Positions 17,641 through 35,530 of a DNA stretch of 56,189 nt are shown in pieces. Source of the DNA: an uncultured virus (IMG/VR IMGVR_UViG_3300027779_000014). Its lineage: Duplodnaviria; Heunggongvirae; Uroviricota; Caudoviricetes. Where the stretch lies: the IMG/VR virus record IMGVR_UViG_3300027779_000014; one strand, 5' to 3'. Under the pieces are notes generated by a model that had not been told where the DNA came from, did not search any database, and saw nothing but the letters and a program-made list of their open reading frames with translations. A program made the position numbers and the translations under genes. The first letter of the stretch is position 1, and every line of letters begins with the position of its first letter.

Positions 17641-18465
17641 CTATTCAAGTTTCTCGAACAGGGCTGAAATTTGTCTTATACCATTTGTATCGATTTCGCT
17701 ATGAAGCGACATCAACATAGTATCTAACAGATCTCTTTTGCTGGTAATTAGTTTCTTGTTGTGTAAATTAATCAGAACATTAGGGAGGCCAATTAAGCCT
17801 TCACTTGTTTCTGACATGGTTACCATTTCGAGATACCAAGTCCAGTTTAGTAATCCAGTACCAATTTGGTATGGTAGTAGTGAATCTGCAATTTCAAACA
17901 CCTCTGTAAGATCTGTTTCTTCCACTACGGGTTCTTCCACTACGGTTTCTTCCACTACGGTTTCTTCCACTACGAGTTCTTCCACTACGGTTTCTTCCAC
18001 TACGGTTTCTTCCACTACGGTTTCTTCCACTACGGGTTCTTCCACTACGGTTTCTTCCACTACGGTTTCTTCCACTACGGTTTCTTCCACTACGGTTTCT
18101 TCCACTAATGCTTTTTCATAAATCTTTAGGTTTTCACCCTCATTCTGTTGATTAAGTTCTTCAAGGGGAAAGATTTCTTTTGGGTTCCAATGAAATGAAT
18201 AGAGTTTTTCTATTCCATGCTCTTCCATAATATCGTTTTTTAGATGGTCCATAATTTCTCCCCATGCTTCCTTTATCTTTTCATCAAGTTTTTCAGGTTT
18301 AATTGTGCTACTTTGTGTAAGTAATTCCAATGTGCGATCTATGAGGCCCTTTTTTAGACCCTCTTCAATATCGCACCCATATTCTTCCAATGCGTGTAGC
18401 ATACGGAAGTACGGCCTTAATTCTTTTATCATTGCCAATTGCTTGGCATTGCGTTCTGTAGTCAT
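17641..18465 (-). CDS. acidic protein with (VVEET)n repeat
   Basis: Motif start; 13 pentapeptide repeats. Confidence 0.8.
   Translation of the reverse strand: MTTERNAKQLAMIKELRPYFRMLHALEEYGCDIEEGLKKGLIDRTLELLTQSSTIKPEKLDEKIKEAWGEIMDHLKNDIMEEHGIEKLYSFHWNPKEIFPLEELNQQNEGENLKIYEKALVEETVVEETVVEETVVEETVVEEPVVEETVVEETVVEETVVEELVVEETVVEETVVEEPVVEETDLTEVFEIADSLLPYQIGTGLLNWTWYLEMVTMSETSEGLIGLPNVLINLHNKKLITSKRDLLDTMLMSLHSEIDTNGIRQISALFEKLE
17915..18107. repeat. 15-bp coding tandem repeat, ~13 copies
   Basis: gtttcttccactacg unit. Confidence 0.95.
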
Positions 18466-27696: not shown

Positions 27697-28119
27697 TCAC
27701 TTGTAAATTATTTTATTAAGTGCAGAAAGCGGAACAATTTTTTCAACAAATAATTTGGAATTTTTGTGTTCCCATGGCTGAAAATTGTATTGTTCTGTTT
27801 CTCTGTCCCATATTCCTACGCTTAGATTTAGCCCTAGTTTGACACAGGCGTTTACTGTCCCGAATAGGGCAGAAGTAAGGCCTGATGCGTAAAGAGCTAC
27901 TTGTAAATCGTGAAATATGGTTGGATCTTCCTCATAAATTGATTGAATCCTTTTTGTTGCTTTAGCATAGTAAGAATCCGGATTTTTTGGATCTAACTTG
28001 TTAGGATGAACGGGGTCCTTGACCTTACTCTCGTCGAAAACGAGATAGTCAATTGGTGTTCCGTCATTCTTGTTTGGTTGATGCCCTGGTCGGGGCATTA
28101 ACAATATGTGCAATGTCAT
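27697..28119 (-). CDS. hypothetical Rossmann-like protein (possibly CARF/Csx3-like)
   Basis: ACTTACC start at 28119; LYASGLTSAL...WDRETEQY. Confidence 0.6.
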   Translation of the reverse strand: MTLHILLMPRPGHQPNKNDGTPIDYLVFDESKVKDPVHPNKLDPKNPDSYYAKATKRIQSIYEEDPTIFHDLQVALYASGLTSALFGTVNACVKLGLNLSVGIWDRETEQYNFQPWEHKNSKLFVEKIVPLSALNKIIYK

Positions 28120-28202
28120 GGTAAGTAGGCACATAGGTAGTGGTGTGCCTTCCACTGCCCCGAAGGGTCTTGCTTTTTGCCAATTAAGGCTAACGAATTT
28201 GA

Positions 28203-29249
28203 TTATTCGGCTTCCAGTACAAGGTAGTCAACATTTGACTTTTCTCTTACTTTCTGGGTCATATTCTTGGAGATTATCTCAGAAAGGTGTTGTTCCCCTT
28301 TCTTGAGCAATTCTGCTGCGGCTTCTTGATTTATTTTTATGTTGTTTGAGAGCCATTGCTTCTCCGATTTGTCCCAGTCACCTGGATTGCTTGATAAATC
28401 GTTTTTGCAAACATCTGATTCGATGCGTGGTTGCTGTTTTTTCCGATAAAATCTTGTTCTTCTTTGAGGAGGGGCGTGCGAAAGTGATCTTTTAACCCTA
28501 TTAGAATGTTTAACATTTCCTTCTAGGATTGATTCACAAAGTTCACACTTGCCTCTACGGGTGCCCATGATTTCAGAATTCCTTTTCCTGATGTGGCAAC
28601 CTTTCTCTTTAGTAACTTTTTTCAAATGCAGTTTTTCGTCATTCAAACGAGCCTTTGCTCTGCGTGTACGAGAAGATTCTAATTTCTTGGACCTTCTCTG
28701 CATAGCATCTACCCAATTATAGGGTACTTGCGGCGTTCTCGTAGAAGTAGCCATGGCTTCCGCTTTGGGCGGGGCTTCGGATTTGACAACCATCGTGGTT
28801 GCTGTGAATCGTACTGGCTTGAATCTTCCATCGAGTTTCCCTTGTTTATTTGTAGGGATCTCTTCGTTCCATTCTACTTTGCATTTTGCCAATTGTATAA
28901 CTTTTTCAGTCACATGACCGTCATTAGATGCGTCATAAAACAAATTCAATGCATAGTTAATTTTTTGTACTAACACATTCGGTGTCAGCATCTTAGCATT
29001 TTTATTCAGTATTACTACATCTTCTTCTTCGGTAGTGAGGTTATCCAAGTATGGCTTTATTATCGAAATCAATATTTTTAGGTAAGATGCTCTTCTTAGA
29101 GCACTTTTGCCTGCACCGGAATTACGCTTACTTATTTTCATAGCGCGTTTCCTTATGGCGGCTTCTCTTTCAGTTAGAGAAGAGATGCGGCCATTTTGGC
29201 TTGCAATTTCGTTCATTATTGGTTCATTATTCGTGCATTTATCTTGCAT
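28203..29249 (-). CDS. basic hypothetical protein (348 aa)
   Basis: Motif start; K/R-rich. Confidence 0.75.
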   Translation of the reverse strand: MQDKCTNNEPIMNEIASQNGRISSLTEREAAIRKRAMKISKRNSGAGKSALRRASYLKILISIIKPYLDNLTTEEEDVVILNKNAKMLTPNVLVQKINYALNLFYDASNDGHVTEKVIQLAKCKVEWNEEIPTNKQGKLDGRFKPVRFTATTMVVKSEAPPKAEAMATSTRTPQVPYNWVDAMQRRSKKLESSRTRRAKARLNDEKLHLKKVTKEKGCHIRKRNSEIMGTRRGKCELCESILEGNVKHSNRVKRSLSHAPPQRRTRFYRKKQQPRIESDVCKNDLSSNPGDWDKSEKQWLSNNIKINQEAAAELLKKGEQHLSEIISKNMTQKVREKSNVDYLVLEAE

Positions 29250-29684
29250 GGTCAGTTACGGGATTTGTTCACTCGCCACCTATCCCGTATCGGTGGGTCA
29301 TTGTGTCTAGTTGCCCCGAAGGGGCGTAAACCTCGTTCATTATTCACTTGGCCATTCTTTTTTCTAAAAACATTTTAAGTTCATTAGATGGTCCCCAACT
29401 TCCTAACACTTGACGAATAGTCAAGGGAAAGTTGTAACCTATGGCGGCTGATAAATCTAGATCCGTAATATTGTAGACTGTTGGTATTCCGGACATGGAA
29501 GCGAACTTGACTTTTATTTCGTCATTTTCCTTCCATGCAGTTCCGTAACCGGTCTTTATTATTAGTTTTCTTTCGTTCATTGGTTCATTATTCGTGCGTT
29601 TATCTTGCATGGTCAGTTACGGGATTTGTTCACTCGCCACCTATCCCGTATCGGTGGGTCATTGTGTCTAGTTGCCCCGAAGGG
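29207..29684. repeat. ~115-bp direct repeat (29207-29323 and 29571-29684) covering leader structure, motif and first codons
   Basis: Near-identical sequence; both genes begin MQDK.TNNEP. Confidence 0.95.
29344..29610 (-). CDS. hypothetical protein
   Basis: Motif-started ORF. Confidence 0.7.
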   Translation of the reverse strand: MQDKRTNNEPMNERKLIIKTGYGTAWKENDEIKVKFASMSGIPTVYNITDLDLSAAIGYNFPLTIRQVLGSWGPSNELKMFLEKRMAK

Positions 29685-29685
29685 C

Positions 29686-31419
29686 TCAACGCTGCTGTTT
29701 TCGAGCAGGCTTGCGTGTTGGTTTTTTGCTTTGCTTGGCTCGGTGATCGTAAGCATCCTTGGTTAGAGGCACTGCTTTTACTCCGATGACTGTTCTGCCA
29801 CCGATTGTCACCATTGCCGGAGTCAATTGAGACCTATTTCTCCCAATTTTTCCGTTTAAGCCGACTTTTTGCTCTCCTTTAGAACCATTGCTCTTTCCAG
29901 ATAGTTGGGCGTTCTCAAAGCCGAAAGGCCAGAATACGCTATTATCCTTTAATTGTTGCAATGCTTTTACAGTGGACTTATCCTTTTTATTTGCTTTATC
30001 GCCTATTTTTAGTAGGTAAGCGATGTTGGATAATACCCCAGTTGGCTCATAGCCGTGTTGGGCTGTCCTAGACTCAGAAGCTAAGATATTCATAATCGAA
30101 GCTGCTTTGCCTTGTCCTAAAACTTGTTGAAAGTAAAGTTCTGCCAACTTGGCTCCCTTCTTAATATCAGATACATCCCGTGGTTCAAGAGTTTTTCGTC
30201 CTCTCTTATCACAAGACTTTTCTGCTTTCGAACCTCTCATGAAGATTGAACTGTGAACTTCTATGCTATAACCTAGTTTTTGTAGAACTTTGGTTTTCAT
30301 TTCTAGCAGTTGAGACACAATTTCCCAATCAAGGAAGCGAGCGTTCTTGCTCGGATTTCGAGCGAGTTTCAGTGTACCCAAGTTCGGGTCATCTCGATCT
30401 ATTCCGTGATTGATTTGTAAATCTTTAAGGTTTCCAGTCTTAGGTAGTATGGTTTGTCCATACGGAGTTGCAAGTCTGATTAGGTTAAACCTACTCAGTG
30501 CGTTGACGCGATATACCAATATGTCTGCGTACTTTTGATTCTCTTGGCTCAGGTATTGATCCAAGTTAATGCCAAGTAATTCTTGTGCAGTTGGGTTTCT
30601 CTCAGTTATACGAGGTACGCCTTTGCCGACTTTGAACATACCAGGGGTATATTGTGGCGTTACATCATAAATAATCATAGACGCGAATTCTTTGTCGTCT
30701 GTTTCTGCGATGTAGCGCACACTTGTGCCCGCTGGTGCTAGTAACTGGAGGTCTTTTACTAATGAATCAGCATCATCTCGGCTGATTAATCCTGATGTTT
30801 TGGCTGTCTTGCCGTCATCAGATAGTAAATTGGACATCAAGGCATGAACGCTAGGATCTATTCCTATATTACCGAATGACATGGAACCTGACAATAAATT
30901 GCCAGCCACCATATTTCGGCCTTCTTGCGTTGTAGCTCCTTGTGTATCTGCTGCCTCTATAAGAGCGTGGGAAACCCACACTTCTTTATTAGGGACATTA
31001 AATGTTCCATTAGGACCTGTTTTCTCAGTTCTTTCATTTTCTTCTAGGTCTGCAAAGACTTGTTTCTTTGATTGTGCGTGCTCTTTCCCATACAATAAAA
31101 TCTCAACTTTAGAATCTCCTATAAAGAAAGTTCCGTCATTTTCTGATTTTGCATGTTCAAAAGATCTTACACACTCGATAAACTGGTCTGTTGCGTCGTT
31201 TTGCTTTGCGTTGTTTTTTATTTCTTGTGAAATAATTTTTAATGTATCTACGATAGGGCTTTTAGCATTCTTTGGCGTTGCATTTGCAATTTGCTCAAAT
31301 TGAGGCAATTTGCTAATAGCAGCCAAATCTGCTTTTAGACCCTTTAGGGTAAATTCAGTCATTATTTCATCTTTTGTCATATCAGCGTAGATTTCTACGC
31401 TTGCATTTTTCATGTGCAT
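29686..31419 (-). CDS. large hypothetical protein (577 aa)
   Basis: ACTTACC start; long ORF with no family I recognise. Confidence 0.85.
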   Translation of the reverse strand: MHMKNASVEIYADMTKDEIMTEFTLKGLKADLAAISKLPQFEQIANATPKNAKSPIVDTLKIISQEIKNNAKQNDATDQFIECVRSFEHAKSENDGTFFIGDSKVEILLYGKEHAQSKKQVFADLEENERTEKTGPNGTFNVPNKEVWVSHALIEAADTQGATTQEGRNMVAGNLLSGSMSFGNIGIDPSVHALMSNLLSDDGKTAKTSGLISRDDADSLVKDLQLLAPAGTSVRYIAETDDKEFASMIIYDVTPQYTPGMFKVGKGVPRITERNPTAQELLGINLDQYLSQENQKYADILVYRVNALSRFNLIRLATPYGQTILPKTGNLKDLQINHGIDRDDPNLGTLKLARNPSKNARFLDWEIVSQLLEMKTKVLQKLGYSIEVHSSIFMRGSKAEKSCDKRGRKTLEPRDVSDIKKGAKLAELYFQQVLGQGKAASIMNILASESRTAQHGYEPTGVLSNIAYLLKIGDKANKKDKSTVKALQQLKDNSVFWPFGFENAQLSGKSNGSKGEQKVGLNGKIGRNRSQLTPAMVTIGGRTVIGVKAVPLTKDAYDHRAKQSKKPTRKPARKQQR

Positions 31420-31439
31420 GGTAAGTATTTATGATAAGT

Positions 31440-31660
31440 AAGCAAGATTGTGGCATACTTGCTCTCTGCGGTGTCATTGAGAGTCCACCATCCTTTTGTC
31501 CTAAGTCGAGGGTTAGCACGACCAGACTTGGGATCCTTTGTTCGTCAAAGTTTTTTCTCGGCATGTTCGCTGAACCGCAGTAAAAATTGCTGCTTAGATG
31601 CTTCACCAAACCAATTATAGGTTCACCCTTTAATGGTCTGACTTATTCCACACAATATTT
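31440..31660 (-). ncRNA. putative structured ncRNA (~220 nt)
   Basis: Bounded by motif variants; stems agcaag/cttgct, tcctaagtc/gacttggga, ctgcgg/ccgcag. Confidence 0.45.
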
Positions 31661-31683
31661 TATGATAAGTATTTATGGTCAGT

Positions 31684-32100
31684 AGTTCCGTTGAGTAGTG
31701 GAAATTGAGCTTATCATTGACGCCGACCTTTTACAGTCGTCACTCAGTCATTTTCAATCTGCAGATTGTCCATGACTTGCCTTTGAATTTTTACGGCTCA
31801 TAGGTAGTAACCGGATTGATGATTTTTAGTCATCTATCCATTTCTACCCCTGTTGCTCTTTCGAGCATTTTGTGGCCTTTCGGCCTAATGGCATCATTTT
31901 ATCCTCTGGTAGAGGACTGGACTCAATTATCGGATTTCCATTCATCCGACCATTATTTATTGTTGTTGCTCTTTCGAGCGTTGCAAGGTTTCGCTTGCTC
32001 CGAACACCTCTGCAGGGTCGGTGTAGTTATGCTGTATCAACACTCCTCGAACTCTGATCGAGGACTTGTCACACACTCTTGGCTGTGTGAGCGTTTTTTA
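31684..32100 (-). ncRNA. putative structured ncRNA (~415 nt)
   Basis: Bounded by motifs; minus-strand GAAA tetraloop hairpins GCTC-GAAA-GAGC (x2) and GGCC-GAAA-GGCC; further stems. Confidence 0.6.
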
Positions 32101-32375
32101 CATGGTAAGTGCAGTTTGCGCGTACTGCTAGACGCATTATTTTTGGTGTTTGGCAATCTAAGTGTTGCCCATACTGTATATTTGCGTTTTAGTCCATATT
32201 ATCGCGGCCTAAATATACCGACCAAATAATAGTCTGCATATTGATGAATCCCTTTTTCTTTTCTTCTGGGTATTCAACCTCAATCATCTGCCTAATTTGC
32301 TTTCTGGAAAAATTTCGCATGGTAAGTGCAGTTTTGCGCGTACTGCTAGACGCATTATTTTTGGTGTTTGGCAAT
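32101..32375. repeat. ~57-bp direct repeat (32101-32157, 32318-32375) with pseudoknot and ACTTACC motif
   Basis: catggtaagtgcagttt(t)gcgcgtactgctagacgcattatttttggtgtttggcaat. Confidence 0.95.
32189..32320 (-). CDS. small hypothetical protein
   Basis: ACTTACC start at 32320. Confidence 0.55.
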   Translation of the reverse strand: MRNFSRKQIRQMIEVEYPEEKKKGFINMQTIIWSVYLGRDNMD

Positions 32376-32405
32376 TAGGGTTTGCCCAACCCATAAGATG
32401 CGGAT

Positions 32406-32510
32406 TTAGATTCTGCAATTCATTGTGCCGCACTCGCAGATTTTCCATTCTGGGTGCATTGGCAAATCATCATCGTATTCTATTCCGCATGAACATGTAT
32501 GTGTGTACAT
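32406..32510 (-). CDS. small zinc-ribbon protein (34 aa)
   Basis: ACTTACC start; CSCG...CECG. Confidence 0.6.
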   Translation of the reverse strand: MYTHTCSCGIEYDDDLPMHPEWKICECGTMNCRI

Positions 32511-32521
32511 GGTAAGTAAGT

Positions 32522-32848
32522 GTTCCAGGGCAAATTCTTTGGTCTGAAATGAGTGGGGGTCAGCACACTCATTCTCGTTGCCGATCATTACATCTCTGGA
32601 ACGGTAAGTGCCGCCACCTCCAATTAAGGAGGGCGTTAAGCCCGCATTCTCATCTGTCTGGTATAAGAGAGGAGTCCTAGGCGGATTCTGGCGACGGTAA
32701 GTGAGCCTTTTATAGATAATTACCGCGTTCTTGCTCAGGATTCCGCTTGGTAATCATAGACCTCTCATTTGACCGTAGAGAGGCTGGTGAAGGATCCACA
32801 CCCAATTCCCTCTTGCGTTATTAGGAGGGAGGTTTGGTAGATATGGAT
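32522..32848 (-). ncRNA. three motif-delimited small structured RNAs (32522-32602, 32610-32695, 32703-32848)
   Basis: Each begins right after ACTTACC with a paired 5' end (GTTCCAG/CTGGAAC; GTCGCCA/TGGCGGC; ATCCATATC/GGTGTGGAT). Confidence 0.55.
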
Positions 32849-33033
32849 GGTAAGTGCAGTTTGTGGTCATTTTCACTGCGAGACCAGGGTCAACACTGCT
32901 CTTAACTACCGAATTCATCGAGACGGCGCGTGTGCTTGTGTTGAAAATGGGATTTGGTCACTCGCCACCTTATCCCATATCAGGTGGGTCATAGTTCGTA
33001 ATTCAAGAATAAAGAGCTTGTATTTACTGCGGA

Positions 33034-33282
33034 TTAAGAAAACCTTCGATTCATTATTGCTTCTTGAATCAAATATTCTACATCTTTTTCGGCAGTCTTT
33101 AGTGCTTCGCGAGTATCTTTCAATTGTCTCAAGGCATTCCGAAATTTATTTTCGGAAATTTGGCCATTCATAAACAATCGCATTAACTGTTGCTCTAACT
33201 GCGGTTTATTCTTGTTGTTGGTCCTAACTTTACGGTGAGGTACAACCGACCCATCTCTGGGATTTGCCTGCTTATTTTGCAT
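33034..33282 (-). CDS. hypothetical coiled-coil protein
   Basis: ACTTACC motif 3 nt after tRNA CCA; start at 33282. Confidence 0.7.
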   Translation of the reverse strand: MQNKQANPRDGSVVPHRKVRTNNKNKPQLEQQLMRLFMNGQISENKFRNALRQLKDTREALKTAEKDVEYLIQEAIMNRRFS

Positions 33283-33292
33283 GGTAAGTATT

Positions 33293-33369
33293 TGGCGGGT
33301 CATACAGGGTTCGAACCTGTGGCCTTCCGGTTAAGAGCCGGACGCTCTACCTGACTAAGCTAATGACCC
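33293..33369 (-). tRNA. tRNA-Lys(CTT), CCA encoded
   Basis: GGGTCAT/ATGACCC acceptor stem, TCCGG-CTCTTAA-CCGGA anticodon arm, GGTTCGAACCC T arm, GCCA end. Confidence 0.95.
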
Positions 33370-33374
33370 GTTGT

Positions 33375-34098
33375 TCCCTCTACTGAGGGATAGTCGTATT
33401 ACCTTTTTTTAGAGTGGAAAGGTTCCACTTTGCTTTTTTTTATGTTAAGTACCGGCCTAAGCCGGTTATTTTTTCTAACATATCGCACATTTTTGGTTCA
33501 GCACCGTTATTGAACTTCCTCGAACCCACGCCACCCCGAAGGGTTTCCTAGCGTGAAATTCGCGCAAACATCCCTACCCTCGCCCTAAGCGTTAGGTGTA
33601 GTTCATAGCCCAATTTCTGTTCACCACCTTATCTCAAAGAGAAAGATGGTGTGTTGCATATCTAACGAGAGTAAGCGTCCACTGGAAATCCTGTTATTCA
33701 ACTTGAAGTCACCTTAAGGTAATCCTCTTGTTGCAGGGCCAATGTAGCCGTCAGTCTTTCGATTATTCTCTCCATACCGCTGCTGTTGTGTGATATTTCT
33801 GCATTAAGGTACATCTGCTCTATGATGTACCCCGTGTGACTTACTGTTTCCAGATATACGAGCCTCGGGAAAACTATCCTAAGGTGCATCTCGTATTAGG
33901 CTGGTTTGCTGCCAGCCCGTTTGTCATTTAACTTCTACAGGACAAGAAGACGCTAGTCTTCAAAGCATTTGTGGATCCTGTAGGTTTTCAGCCGGTAGAG
34001 TTTGCATCCCTGGTTTTCTCGACGCTTTGCAGGCATCGCTATTCAGGGAACTCCGTGAAGCCCCTTGAGGCAACCGGCTTGTGAGGATTGTCTCCTCA
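33375..34098 (-). ncRNA. putative large structured ncRNA (~700 nt) upstream of tRNA
   Basis: No credible ORF; dense inverted repeats (ggtacatc/gatgtacc, ctacagga/tcctgtag, agccggt/accggct, tacgag/ctcgta, gaagac/gtcttc, accggc/gccggt). Strand inferred from context. Confidence 0.5.
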
Positions 34099-34579
34099 TT
34101 ACATAGGCCACCGGCCCTCTAGGAGAGGGTCTGCGGCTAATATTTGGTAAGTTTTGGACCTGTTAAGGCCTCTTACATTATATAGGCCACCGGCTCTCTA
34201 GGAGAGAGACAGTTTATACTATACAATATGTATTCTAGTACCTATGCCACCGGCATTCATAAAGAAAGCCCTAAAGAGCAATTCTCAAGCTACTGCTTGG
34301 GATCACTCTGGGGTTTTTTGAGCCAGGAGCATCTGTTCCTAGGAACATTATCCTCTGGCAGATCTGTTCCTAGGAACATAATCTTAATGAGTTGGTGGTA
34401 TAAAGCACTTATTCTAGTACCTATGCCACCGGCATTCATAAAGAAAGCCCTAAAGAGCAATTCTCAAGCTACTGCTTGGATCACTCTGGGGTTTTTTGAG
34501 CCAGGAAGATCGTTCCTGGAACATAATTCTTAATGAGTTGGTGGTATAAAGCACTTATTCTAGTACCTATGCCACCGGC
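34097..34579. repeat. Repeat-rich divergent control region: 2x ~35-bp hairpin repeat and 179/146-bp tandem repeat with TGTTCCTAGGAACA palindromes
   Basis: Units at 34097 and 34177; tandem copies start 34231, 34410, 34556; palindromes 34334-34347 and 34365-34378. Confidence 0.9.
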
Positions 34580-34609
34580 TTTTATGATGGGAGCCCCTCT
34601 CCGCAACTC

Positions 34610-35530
34610 ATGAGCGACGCGCTGTCCCTAGGATCTCGGGCTTTCGAGGAATTGTTCTGCGAGTCAGGAGAACCTTCTGGATGTGCCAAGAAAGGAGGGC
34701 AGATAATTTATGAAAATGGGAAATCTGAATGCGCTTTCTGCGGATTAACGACTAAATTCGATTTCGATACATCTCCTACATTCAATAATGATAAAATGGA
34801 AAAGAGGTTCAGTTTAAGCGAAACAGGAGCTAAAAGAGGGAAGAAGCGAGCATTTAACAAATTGTTTGGCGATTCAACATATGTTGCGGCACATGAAGAT
34901 TTTTCAGGAGGCTACAAAGTCACTGACATTGGGCTTGTGAAGAAATTCAAATTGTCTGCTAACGCGGCTGCTGAAACTGAGAGAGTGTTTTATGAGATGC
35001 TGGAGAAGAATTACCAATTAGGAGGCAAGGGGTTGGATGCTGTAGTATATGCTGCTGCATTCCATGGATGTCAATTCGATTACAATTTCGTTCCAATAGA
35101 AAAGATAGTGAGAGACTCTAGTTCTATAAAGAAAGCAAATAGTCTAATCAAAAGAGCTAGGCAAGATGGCATCATTAAACTAGTGCAAAAAGATCCTGTT
35201 GCGATTTTAGAGTCGGCCCTATCAAAGCATGCATCGAGTAATTCTGTTCAAGAATTAGCAATTAAATTCGCAAAGATCTATATTCCTAACTTACGACCAG
35301 ATATTCACGCATCTGGAGCATTATACAAATCTATGAAAATTACGGGAAATAGTTCTGAAAAGAGAATTTCACAGGAAGAAATCGGAAAAAGATTCCATGT
35401 GAGTAGGAAACATGTGGGACAGGGGTATAGAGCAATTAACGAGGCTCTGACGCCTAAATCCAACCCTGGTCATTTGCCAAACATAGGTATTACTGGCGAA
35501 CAGTTGAAACTTTTGAGGGCTTTACGCTAA
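34610..35530 (+). CDS. tfb: TFIIB/TFB-like transcription initiation factor
   Basis: N-terminal Zn ribbon (C...CAFCG), cyclin-like repeats GKGLDAVVYAAAF and RPDIHASGALY, C-terminal ISQEEIGKRFHVS HTH. Confidence 0.75.
   Translation: MSDALSLGSRAFEELFCESGEPSGCAKKGGQIIYENGKSECAFCGLTTKFDFDTSPTFNNDKMEKRFSLSETGAKRGKKRAFNKLFGDSTYVAAHEDFSGGYKVTDIGLVKKFKLSANAAAETERVFYEMLEKNYQLGGKGLDAVVYAAAFHGCQFDYNFVPIEKIVRDSSSIKKANSLIKRARQDGIIKLVQKDPVAILESALSKHASSNSVQELAIKFAKIYIPNLRPDIHASGALYKSMKITGNSSEKRISQEEIGKRFHVSRKHVGQGYRAINEALTPKSNPGHLPNIGITGEQLKLLRALR

Follow-up and report, generated by a model that had tools for sequence, protein, structure and literature searches.

A seven-nucleotide word adjoining start codons and structured non-coding units in an uncultured phage

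When a short word stands directly before the start codons of many genes of one phage, is it a signal to the ribosome, or does it mark the ends of RNA molecules? The question is raised by a stretch of 56,189 nucleotides (nt) from an uncultured member of the Caudoviricetes (IMG/VR record IMGVR_UViG_3300027779_000014), called the window below. On its minus strand, three copies of the word ACTTACC, at 32603–32609, 32696–32702 and 32849–32855, are followed by the triplets GTT, GTC and ATC, respectively, and none by ATG. They bound three non-coding units, A, B and C, in the interval 32522–32855. The observation holds and is the most telling element of a broader, unusual pattern, in which the word ACT[G/T]ACC adjoins nearly 60 start codons. 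The word most likely marks where RNA molecules begin and end.

Unit A (32703–32848, minus strand) has 146 nt and is non-coding. The ACTTACC before it (32849–32855) has a short hairpin and the sequence AAACTGC just upstream, as do the copies at 32104 and 32321. The first nine bases of the unit, ATCCATATC, pair with GGTGTGGAT about 40 nt downstream, giving an internal 55-nt hairpin at the 5' end and no end-to-end stem; two further hairpins follow (minimum free energy, MFE, −40.6). The copy at 32696–32702 separates unit A from unit B (32610–32695, 86 nt), which starts with GTCGCCA and ends with TGGCGGC, directly adjoining the next motif copy. These ends form a 7-bp stem with one G·U pair that closes a four-way junction (MFE −29.0). 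An inner hairpin of unit B pairs CCUCC with GGAGG, and its T-like hairpin has a 6-nt loop. The copy at 32603–32609 separates unit B from unit C (32522–32602, 81 nt), which starts with GTTCCAG, ends with CTGGAAC and is predicted to fold into a 7-bp end-to-end stem, a second 5-bp stem and a central 9-bp hairpin. Unit C is followed by ACTT and then ACTTACC, a partial tandem copy (32511–32521, minus strand), which adjoins the ATG of a 34-codon open reading frame (ORF; 32406–32510). The predicted peptide of this ORF has two CxC-type pairs of cysteines, possibly forming a small zinc ribbon, and matches no family.

Full pairing (7/7) of two random 7-mers of the same composition, with G·U allowed, has a probability of 0.0006. 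The fold z-scores are −3.24 for unit C (one in 200 shuffles equally good), −2.30 for unit A (three in 200) and −1.90 for unit B (11 in 200). No Rfam 15 family matches units A to C at the gathering score over the whole window, and at E up to 10 the interval 31900–34400 gives chance-level matches only, all outside the units. The possibility that the units are tRNAs was rejected; ARAGORN and the Rfam model RF00005 call a single tRNA-Lys in the window, and no other at E up to 10 over 31900–34400.

The initial annotation had proposed, from the letters of the sequence, that ACTTACC delimits non-coding RNAs here, with a stem beginning right after each copy. The three copies without ATG are borne out by the minus-strand reading, the units of 146, 86 and 81 nt are confirmed, and folding gave the z-scores listed above. 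The stem runs from end to end over 7 bp in units B and C and is internal in unit A. The proposal has also been corrected: the features belong to the minus strand, what comes after unit C is ACTT plus ACTTACC, and ACTTACC is one form of a commoner word.

There are 14 copies of ACTTACC in the window against 4.33 expected, a count that none of 100 dinucleotide shuffles reached. The minus strand holds 12 of them, ten of which fall within 28120–34152. When one mismatch to ACTTACC is allowed, the dominant form is ACTGACC, with 55 copies in the window, all of them on the minus strand. A Markov model predicts 1.0–1.6 copies for each of the two words. All ACTGACC copies are found within 341–31683 (minus strand), and all except that at 31677 are gene starts between 341 and 29617. 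ATG follows directly at 52 of the 55 copies and after a spacer of 1 or 3 nt at two more; the copy at 31677 stands at the boundary of a large RNA, big2. ACTTACC directly precedes ATG at six of the ten minus-strand copies between 28120 and 34152, which brings the starts made of motif plus ATG to 58. The ACTTACC form is restricted to the upstream RNA-rich 6 kb and the ACTGACC form, the 31677 copy excepted, to the gene array.

The start codon is ATG in all 58 of these sites, and the next bases are preferentially A (43), C (33) and A (42). Upstream of position −7 there is no conservation among them. The stop codon of the upstream gene is located at or before the word in 48 of the 58 sites, mostly 0–3 nt before it, and five times TGA is part of the word. 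At the ten other sites no upstream ORF of at least 40 codons was found, and among the 58 no upstream ORF was seen to extend past the word. The intergenic distance in the array is 7–10 nt and is made of the word alone. Motif-preceded starts in 341–29617 (minus strand) carry no Shine–Dalgarno sequence. A simple listing of ORFs lengthens some module genes to earlier in-frame starts (e.g. 8641 instead of 8629). The plus-strand genes of the 34–47 kb region and the minus-strand genes at 47–56 kb have GGAG-type sites without the word. In predicted RNA folds the word is unpaired much more often than other 7-mers (medians of 0.23 and 0.11 versus 0.029 overall, bearing in mind that start regions are generally open).

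Several other explanations of the word were rejected. A sigma-70 promoter at each motif copy is not supported, with no conserved −10 or −35 element and 18 promoter-like sites against 13.5 ± 3.7 expected. The complementary strand resembles eukaryotic 5' splice sites (GGTAAGT) on the plus strand; this reading fails because minus-strand ORFs with full-length homologues begin exactly after the motif. A trans-acting guide complementary to the motif was also sought: GGUNAGU does not occur in the upstream-region RNAs of the window, and conservation of the sole 6/7 match (33844) was looked for in five relatives and not found.

Two larger non-coding RNAs and a tRNA are punctuated by the same word on the minus strand. 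The first ACTTACC (34146–34152) precedes big1, a structured non-coding RNA of about 660–695 nt (33451–34145; z −4.66), after which the variant ACTTAAC is found at 33444–33450. The tRNA-Lys(CTT), called by ARAGORN and Rfam at 33293–33369, ends with an encoded CCA, followed by AAT and then by the ACTTACC at 33283–33289, which adjoins the ATG of an 82-codon ORF (33034–33282). A further copy, at 32321–32327, adjoins with zero spacing the ATG of a 43-codon ORF (32189–32320). The copy at 32104–32110 is followed by ATG TAA, and so by no gene; it stands at the start of big2 (31685–32103), a structured non-coding RNA of about 420 nt (z −7.42) that carries abundant short hairpins with CGAAAG loops. The variants ACTGACC and ACTTATC stand in tandem (31664–31683) at the 3' end of this RNA. 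ACTTATC and ACTTACC are likewise in tandem at 31420–31439, the second adjoining the ATG of the conserved first gene, of 577 codons (29686–31419); its product has no Pfam or PHROG match and no protein-atlas lead, and the AlphaFold model has a pLDDT of 48.7, too low to be of use. The last ACTTACC (28120–28126), with a hairpin upstream, adjoins the ATG of a 140-codon gene. No Rfam match was found for big1, and none for big2 in the whole-window search at gathering score.

Six metatranscriptome runs contain part of the region, all as assembled contigs, and four of these runs (X7–X10, from seawater) were mapped on 27800–34700. Such contigs do not give exact ends, strand or 5' chemistry. In all four runs big1 and big2 are the deepest contigs of the region: big1 is covered at 33485–34132 with depths of 229, 60, 38 and 7, and big2 at 31685–32089 or 32144 with depths of 179, 77, 43 and 8. 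The upper ends of contigs, which are 5' ends on the minus strand, cluster just inside the predicted RNAs: 12 of 28 are located 8–22 nt below a predicted first base, against 0.9 expected for this range of distances, which was picked after inspection of the data. They correspond to seven of the 15 predicted sites, namely 34145, 33282, 32103, 31663, 31419, 29249 and 28119, of which 29249 is confounded by a 106-nt repeat.

At the individual sites, contigs of X9 and X10 stop at 34127 and 34132 below the first motif copy, and a contig of X8 stops at 33272 below the copy before the 82-codon ORF. In three of the four runs contigs stop at 32087–32089, inside the start of big2. Contigs of three runs end at 31399–31405, below the tandem copies before the 577-codon gene, and those upstream of these copies start at 31450–31463. 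The X7 contigs stop at 28102 and resume at 28151, on either side of the last copy. The contigs of big2 extend as far as the motif at 31677–31683 or into it, reaching 31678 and 31685, and the next ones begin at 31633–31649; both sides are well expressed (depths of 179 and 37 in X7). No terminator hairpin is evident at the 3' end of big2, since the final bases ahead of the motif stay unpaired in the predicted fold.

Relatives of the RNA-rich region were searched with a pattern covering the 3' half of the tRNA-Lys and the motif, which gave 26 metagenome loci. The junction of tRNA, CCA, AAA or AAT, and word is kept in 12 of these; among viral contigs the same pattern identified a single relative, G002. 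The word is ACTTACC in the window and in locus L035, and ACTAACC or ACTAATC in the upstream region of the others, with ACTGACC in the array. All relatives retain big1 and big2 in part, and in each of them big2 follows a motif copy although its first bases differ.

Units are present in some relatives and absent from others. Matches to units A and B were obtained only in a contig that is identical to the window apart from an 8-nt indel. Unit C has three tandem homologues in L035, of 170, 115 and 84 nt, with conserved 5' and 3' ends and different centres. Its terminal stem is identical in all four copies, and thus shows no covariation, and the second stem is kept in three of four. A search of viral contigs with a unit-C pattern gave 77 matches, of which the genuine one is the window's own contig; there is none elsewhere in G002.

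A second family of units, each beginning right after a motif copy, was found in the related loci (L044:3535–3643, L044:5008–5109, L022:2000–2105, L032:3892–3970, and, on the minus strand, L033:1534–1643 and L033:1439–1526). These units have 79–110 nt and variable centres, and start with AUG, opening ORFs of 5–36 codons. In all six, pairing starts at nucleotide 1 or 2. A first stem joins nucleotides 1–9, among them the AUG that follows the word, to a segment located about 16 nt downstream; a second stem joins the loop between the arms of the first to the 3' end of the unit, stopping 1 nt short of that end, and the resulting topology is a pseudoknot. A motif copy or close variant directly follows the unit in five of the six, the exception being L033b. 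In each stem one pair runs from G–C through G·U to A–U across the copies, so that both stems show compensatory changes. Covariation is therefore found in this family, unit C has an invariant stem, and units A and B have no diverged relatives in which it could appear.

G002, recovered with a two-motif pattern search, is a complete viral contig of 128,784 bp with terminal repeats. One of its strands has 67 ACTGACC copies; 62 fall within 73.4–113.9 kb, and 60 precede ATG. The window and G002 are collinear outside the module, which indicates that the window belongs to a related marine phage with a genome of about 130 kb. Within the module, 22 of the 54 ORFs have a homologue in G002 (loci L017–L019, 73.4–114 kb), and their order is scrambled; the module behaves like a hypervariable cassette array. 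The genes that could be named encode DNA methyltransferases (at least nine in G002), ArdA, DUF3846, a PAPS-reductase-like protein, a PCNA-like clamp and an AAA ATPase, and most module proteins, many of them from small genes, gave nothing with Pfam or PHROGs. We read it as an anti-restriction and replication module, presumably expressed early. Among the non-module genes of G002, Shine–Dalgarno-like sequences precede 36 of 60 (loose pattern).

An 839-aa protein is encoded 1.3 kb beyond the module of G002 (69544–72063, plus strand; L017:9544–12063). It contains the domain RNA_pol_Rpb1_5, a beta-prime C-terminal domain (Pfam E 3.3e-19, 69.8 bits against a cut-off of 28.5), and its best match of solved structure is archaeal Rpo1C (E 3e-15). 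No further RNA polymerase subunit was found in G002 at E up to 1. Other products of this genome include a Cpn60 chaperonin and a protein of 2086 aa that contains a guanylate kinase domain. No close isolate was found among GenBank phages. A relative that shares DUF6915, L004, is without the motif and has GGAGG sites instead.

The explanation that we favour, tentatively and with confidence slightly short of even, is that ACU[G/U]ACC is a sequence-specific cleavage mark that releases leaderless mRNAs and structured RNAs. The module would be transcribed as one or a few long RNAs punctuated by ACU[G/U]ACC (ACUAACC in some relatives), and a putative sequence-specific endoribonuclease, of phage or host origin, would cut these right after the word, on its 3' side. 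Ahead of a gene, the cut would produce an mRNA starting with AUG and probably translated without a leader, which would explain both the missing Shine–Dalgarno sequences and the exclusive use of AUG; where there is no gene, the cut would produce a discrete structured RNA. Such cuts would free both large RNAs, the precursor of tRNA-Lys and the three small units, and end-to-end or near-terminal stems may protect the new RNA ends.

Cleavage is favoured because the flanking words set both ends of the small units, because upstream ORFs never cross the word, because big2 coverage enters the word and then breaks without an evident terminator, and because the word is predicted to be unpaired unusually often. 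A further reason comes from the in-gene copies outside the module of G002, which are followed by a purine in two of ten sense cases versus nine of 13 antisense cases (Fisher p 0.036; small sample), as would fit selection acting on RNA. The use of two initiation signals within one phage, the motif in the module and GGAG-type ribosome sites outside it, was counted on the same side. The contig breaks would accordingly reflect cleavage instead of initiation. The view of the initial annotation that the motif is no pure translation signal is supported by the conserved units, the covariation in the sister family and the contig breaks. Its claim that the motif marks RNA 5' ends agrees with the breaks at seven of 15 sites; discrete RNAs corresponding to the three small units were not observed.

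A number of observations weigh against cleavage. No nuclease was identified among the module proteins searched with Pfam and PHROGs. In five related loci ACTAACC followed by G occurs on the sense strand within a conserved gene of the 560-aa class. The four RNA runs may belong to a single campaign, and the range of 8–22 nt for contig ends was, as said, chosen after inspection. Units A to C are covered by one contig only (X7, 32559–33180, depth 11), which bridges all three motif copies; three of the four runs have zero coverage there and no run has a separate species, a result that is uninformative for small RNAs. Libraries of such RNA runs tend to lose small RNAs. Another X7 contig (31698–32144) bridges the copy at 32104–32110. 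Cleavage, if real, is therefore incomplete, or there was DNA in the library. Finally, the purine that follows the motif in nearly all copies fits transcription initiation too, and the protein with a beta-prime domain is encoded beside the module in G002.

These last two points lead to the main competitor, which we consider unlikely and yet worth weighing: the word would be a promoter core adjoining the start site used by a phage-encoded RNA polymerase, each gene or RNA unit would be its own transcription unit, and the upstream hairpins and stems would be terminators. A hairpin does stand directly before most motif copies of the upstream region, and in all relatives the upstream region and the gene array differ by single-base variants (G versus T or A), as would be expected of promoter classes. 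However, the candidate polymerase has one recognizable domain, covering about 100 of its 839 residues, with no other subunit beside it, and it was seen in G002 and not for the phage of the window, whose contig stops within the module. A promoter does not set the 3' ends of RNAs, and leaves unexplained why unit stems end 0–1 nt before the next motif, why ORFs do not overlap the word and why big2 contigs enter the motif and stop with no terminator hairpin in evidence. It also predicts that antisense copies should be avoided at least as much as sense copies, and the opposite was observed, in small numbers. There is a precedent in phage phiKZ: according to PMC4666361, the late promoter of its non-virion RNA polymerase is the 4-nt word TATG, ending at +1 immediately upstream of the start point, without conserved upstream elements. 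The likeness is that of a very short word ending at the first transcribed base. It is phiKZ, though, that has a multisubunit polymerase of its own, against a single beta-prime-like domain in the present lineage; the word is different, and phiKZ transcripts carry leaders, with no leaderless transcript found early in infection (PMC8244752).

Readings at the level of translation alone or DNA alone explain less than either cleavage or promotion. If the word were only a signal for translation start or termination–reinitiation, recognized by a ribosome component or phage factor, the units would be decayed genes or spacers and their motif copies leftovers, with no coincidence between RNA ends and the word. 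The zero spacing to ATG, the upstream stops mostly 0–3 nt before the word and the start-associated sequences of Cluster K phages (one-orientation words near non-structural starts, with a proposed role in translation; PMC3203893) suit such a signal. So does an unrelated viral contig of 59% GC without tblastx similarity, L011 (IMGVR_UViG_3300009408_000004, 41714–62158), in which ten ATG starts are preceded by TGACC, four of them by the full ACTGACC, hinting at a factor that is not specific to this phage. We nevertheless consider it improbable: motif-bounded non-coding units are conserved and covary in relatives, the motif stands before big2 in all relatives whatever the first bases of big2, RNA contigs break at the motif, and there is neither a complementary guide in the upstream-region RNAs nor, by eye, any complementarity to the 16S rRNA 3' end (compared with that of Escherichia coli, which may not be the host). 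Just as little probability is given to the word as a DNA junction for cassette exchange, with the copies around units B and C as junction or target-site duplications flanking small elements with inverted ends. The scrambled order of the 22 shared ORFs out of 54 in an otherwise collinear genome, the presence or absence of units between relatives, the scars ACTT plus ACTTACC in the window and ACTTACC-AT-ACTTACC in L035, and the organization of units B and C (7-bp direct repeat, inverted end, matching inverted end, direct repeat) speak for such a junction. Against it, the G·U intermediates and compensatory pairs of the second family indicate pairing of RNA, and neither the zero spacing to ATG nor the strand bias nor the contig breaks are accounted for. 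The sole recombinase found is a small serine enzyme of invertase type beside tail-fibre genes. Recombination at about 60 identical words probably drives the shuffling of the module; with words of 10–13 nt it may be a by-product needing no dedicated function.

The cleavage reading can be extended to a private 7-nt RNA code, a version that we regard as doubtful. A dedicated nuclease would cut after each ACU[G/U/A]ACC across the whole 35–40 kb early counter-defence module, yielding about 60 leaderless mRNAs, scaffolded small RNAs with conserved paired ends and variable centres, and large structured RNAs. Cassettes would be freely swapped between phages, since each of them, coding or not, is self-contained between two identical marks.

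Partial likenesses to this proposal are known elsewhere. Mitochondrial polycistronic transcripts are punctuated by tRNAs and cut by RNase P and RNase Z, and animal mitochondrial mRNAs have little or no leader. In phage T4, small stable RNAs are encoded beside tRNA genes and co-transcribed with tRNAs. What both have in common with the proposed system is a long precursor from which cuts at defined marks release mRNAs and structured RNAs. The mitochondrial marks are folded tRNAs, whereas the mark proposed here is a 7-nt word in linear form, and neither ARAGORN nor the Rfam model calls unit B or C a tRNA. T4 RegB cuts at GGAG and so inactivates mRNAs; enzymes of the MazF family cut at sites of 3–7 nt and have been proposed to make leaderless mRNAs. 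These enzymes offer the likeness of single-stranded RNA cut at a short linear word near start codons, as is suggested here, and no RegB or MazF-family homologue was detected in the Pfam and PHROGs scans of the module proteins. We know of no counterpart to the punctuation of every gene in a module of 35–40 kb.

Two mobile arrangements were tried and rejected. Units B and C have the 7-nt inverted ends and flanking words of a miniature inverted-repeat element, but copies of unit C occur only in tandem at the same locus in L035. An integron cassette array, with attC hairpin sites and an integron integrase, does not agree with intergenic spaces that consist of the word alone (7–10 nt), and no tyrosine integrase was found among the proteins searched.

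The nearest described class is that of the start-associated sequences (SAS) of Cluster K. According to PMC3203893, an SAS is a short asymmetric word in one orientation, found in the non-structural half of the genome before gene starts, with a preference for ATG and with function unknown, and it is not linked to RNAs. It has 13 bp with an AGGAG Shine–Dalgarno core, is located 3–7 bp upstream of the start and occurs in 11–19 copies. The word described here has the single orientation, the association with non-structural genes and the ATG preference; the Shine–Dalgarno core and the 3–7 bp spacing are absent. It comprises 7 nt (10–13 with ATGACA), contains no GGAG or AGGA, has zero spacing and about 60 copies, and also bounds non-coding RNAs. 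A search of the literature for the motif string and for phage motifs that abut starts found no description of such a system, with most subscription journals outside its coverage.

If the motif defines RNA ends, the early genes of the phage would be expressed by a system of their own, in which messages lack ribosome-binding sites and open directly with AUG, and a single word is invariant. Late genes of the same lineage use ordinary Shine–Dalgarno sites. With such a system, the favouring by a virus of its own leaderless messages could be tested directly. The motif would also explain how a hypervariable anti-restriction array can be reshuffled without loss of expression. It points to phage RNAs that have not been described, two large structured ones that dominate the metatranscriptome signal of the region and small ones with conserved ends and variable centres. 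The word in addition gives the exact start codons of about 60 genes.

The window contains other repeats. The region 34097–34625, in the divergent interval between the module and the plus-strand genes, has five direct copies of a 31-nt element with GCCACCGG, three 90-nt repeats and two perfect TGTTCCTAGGAACA palindromes; these look like iterons or operators. Two genes have the 106-nt repeat (99% identical; 29218–29323 and 29579–29684) across their upstream regions and initial codons. The 22-nt core of this repeat, which is also present at 32949–32970, upstream of unit A, and in G002, forms a CCACC/GGTGG hairpin that lies about 25 nt upstream of ACTGACC. At 17916–18106, 15-nt tandem repeats inside a 274-codon gene give staggered BLAST matches to G002 97479–97593.

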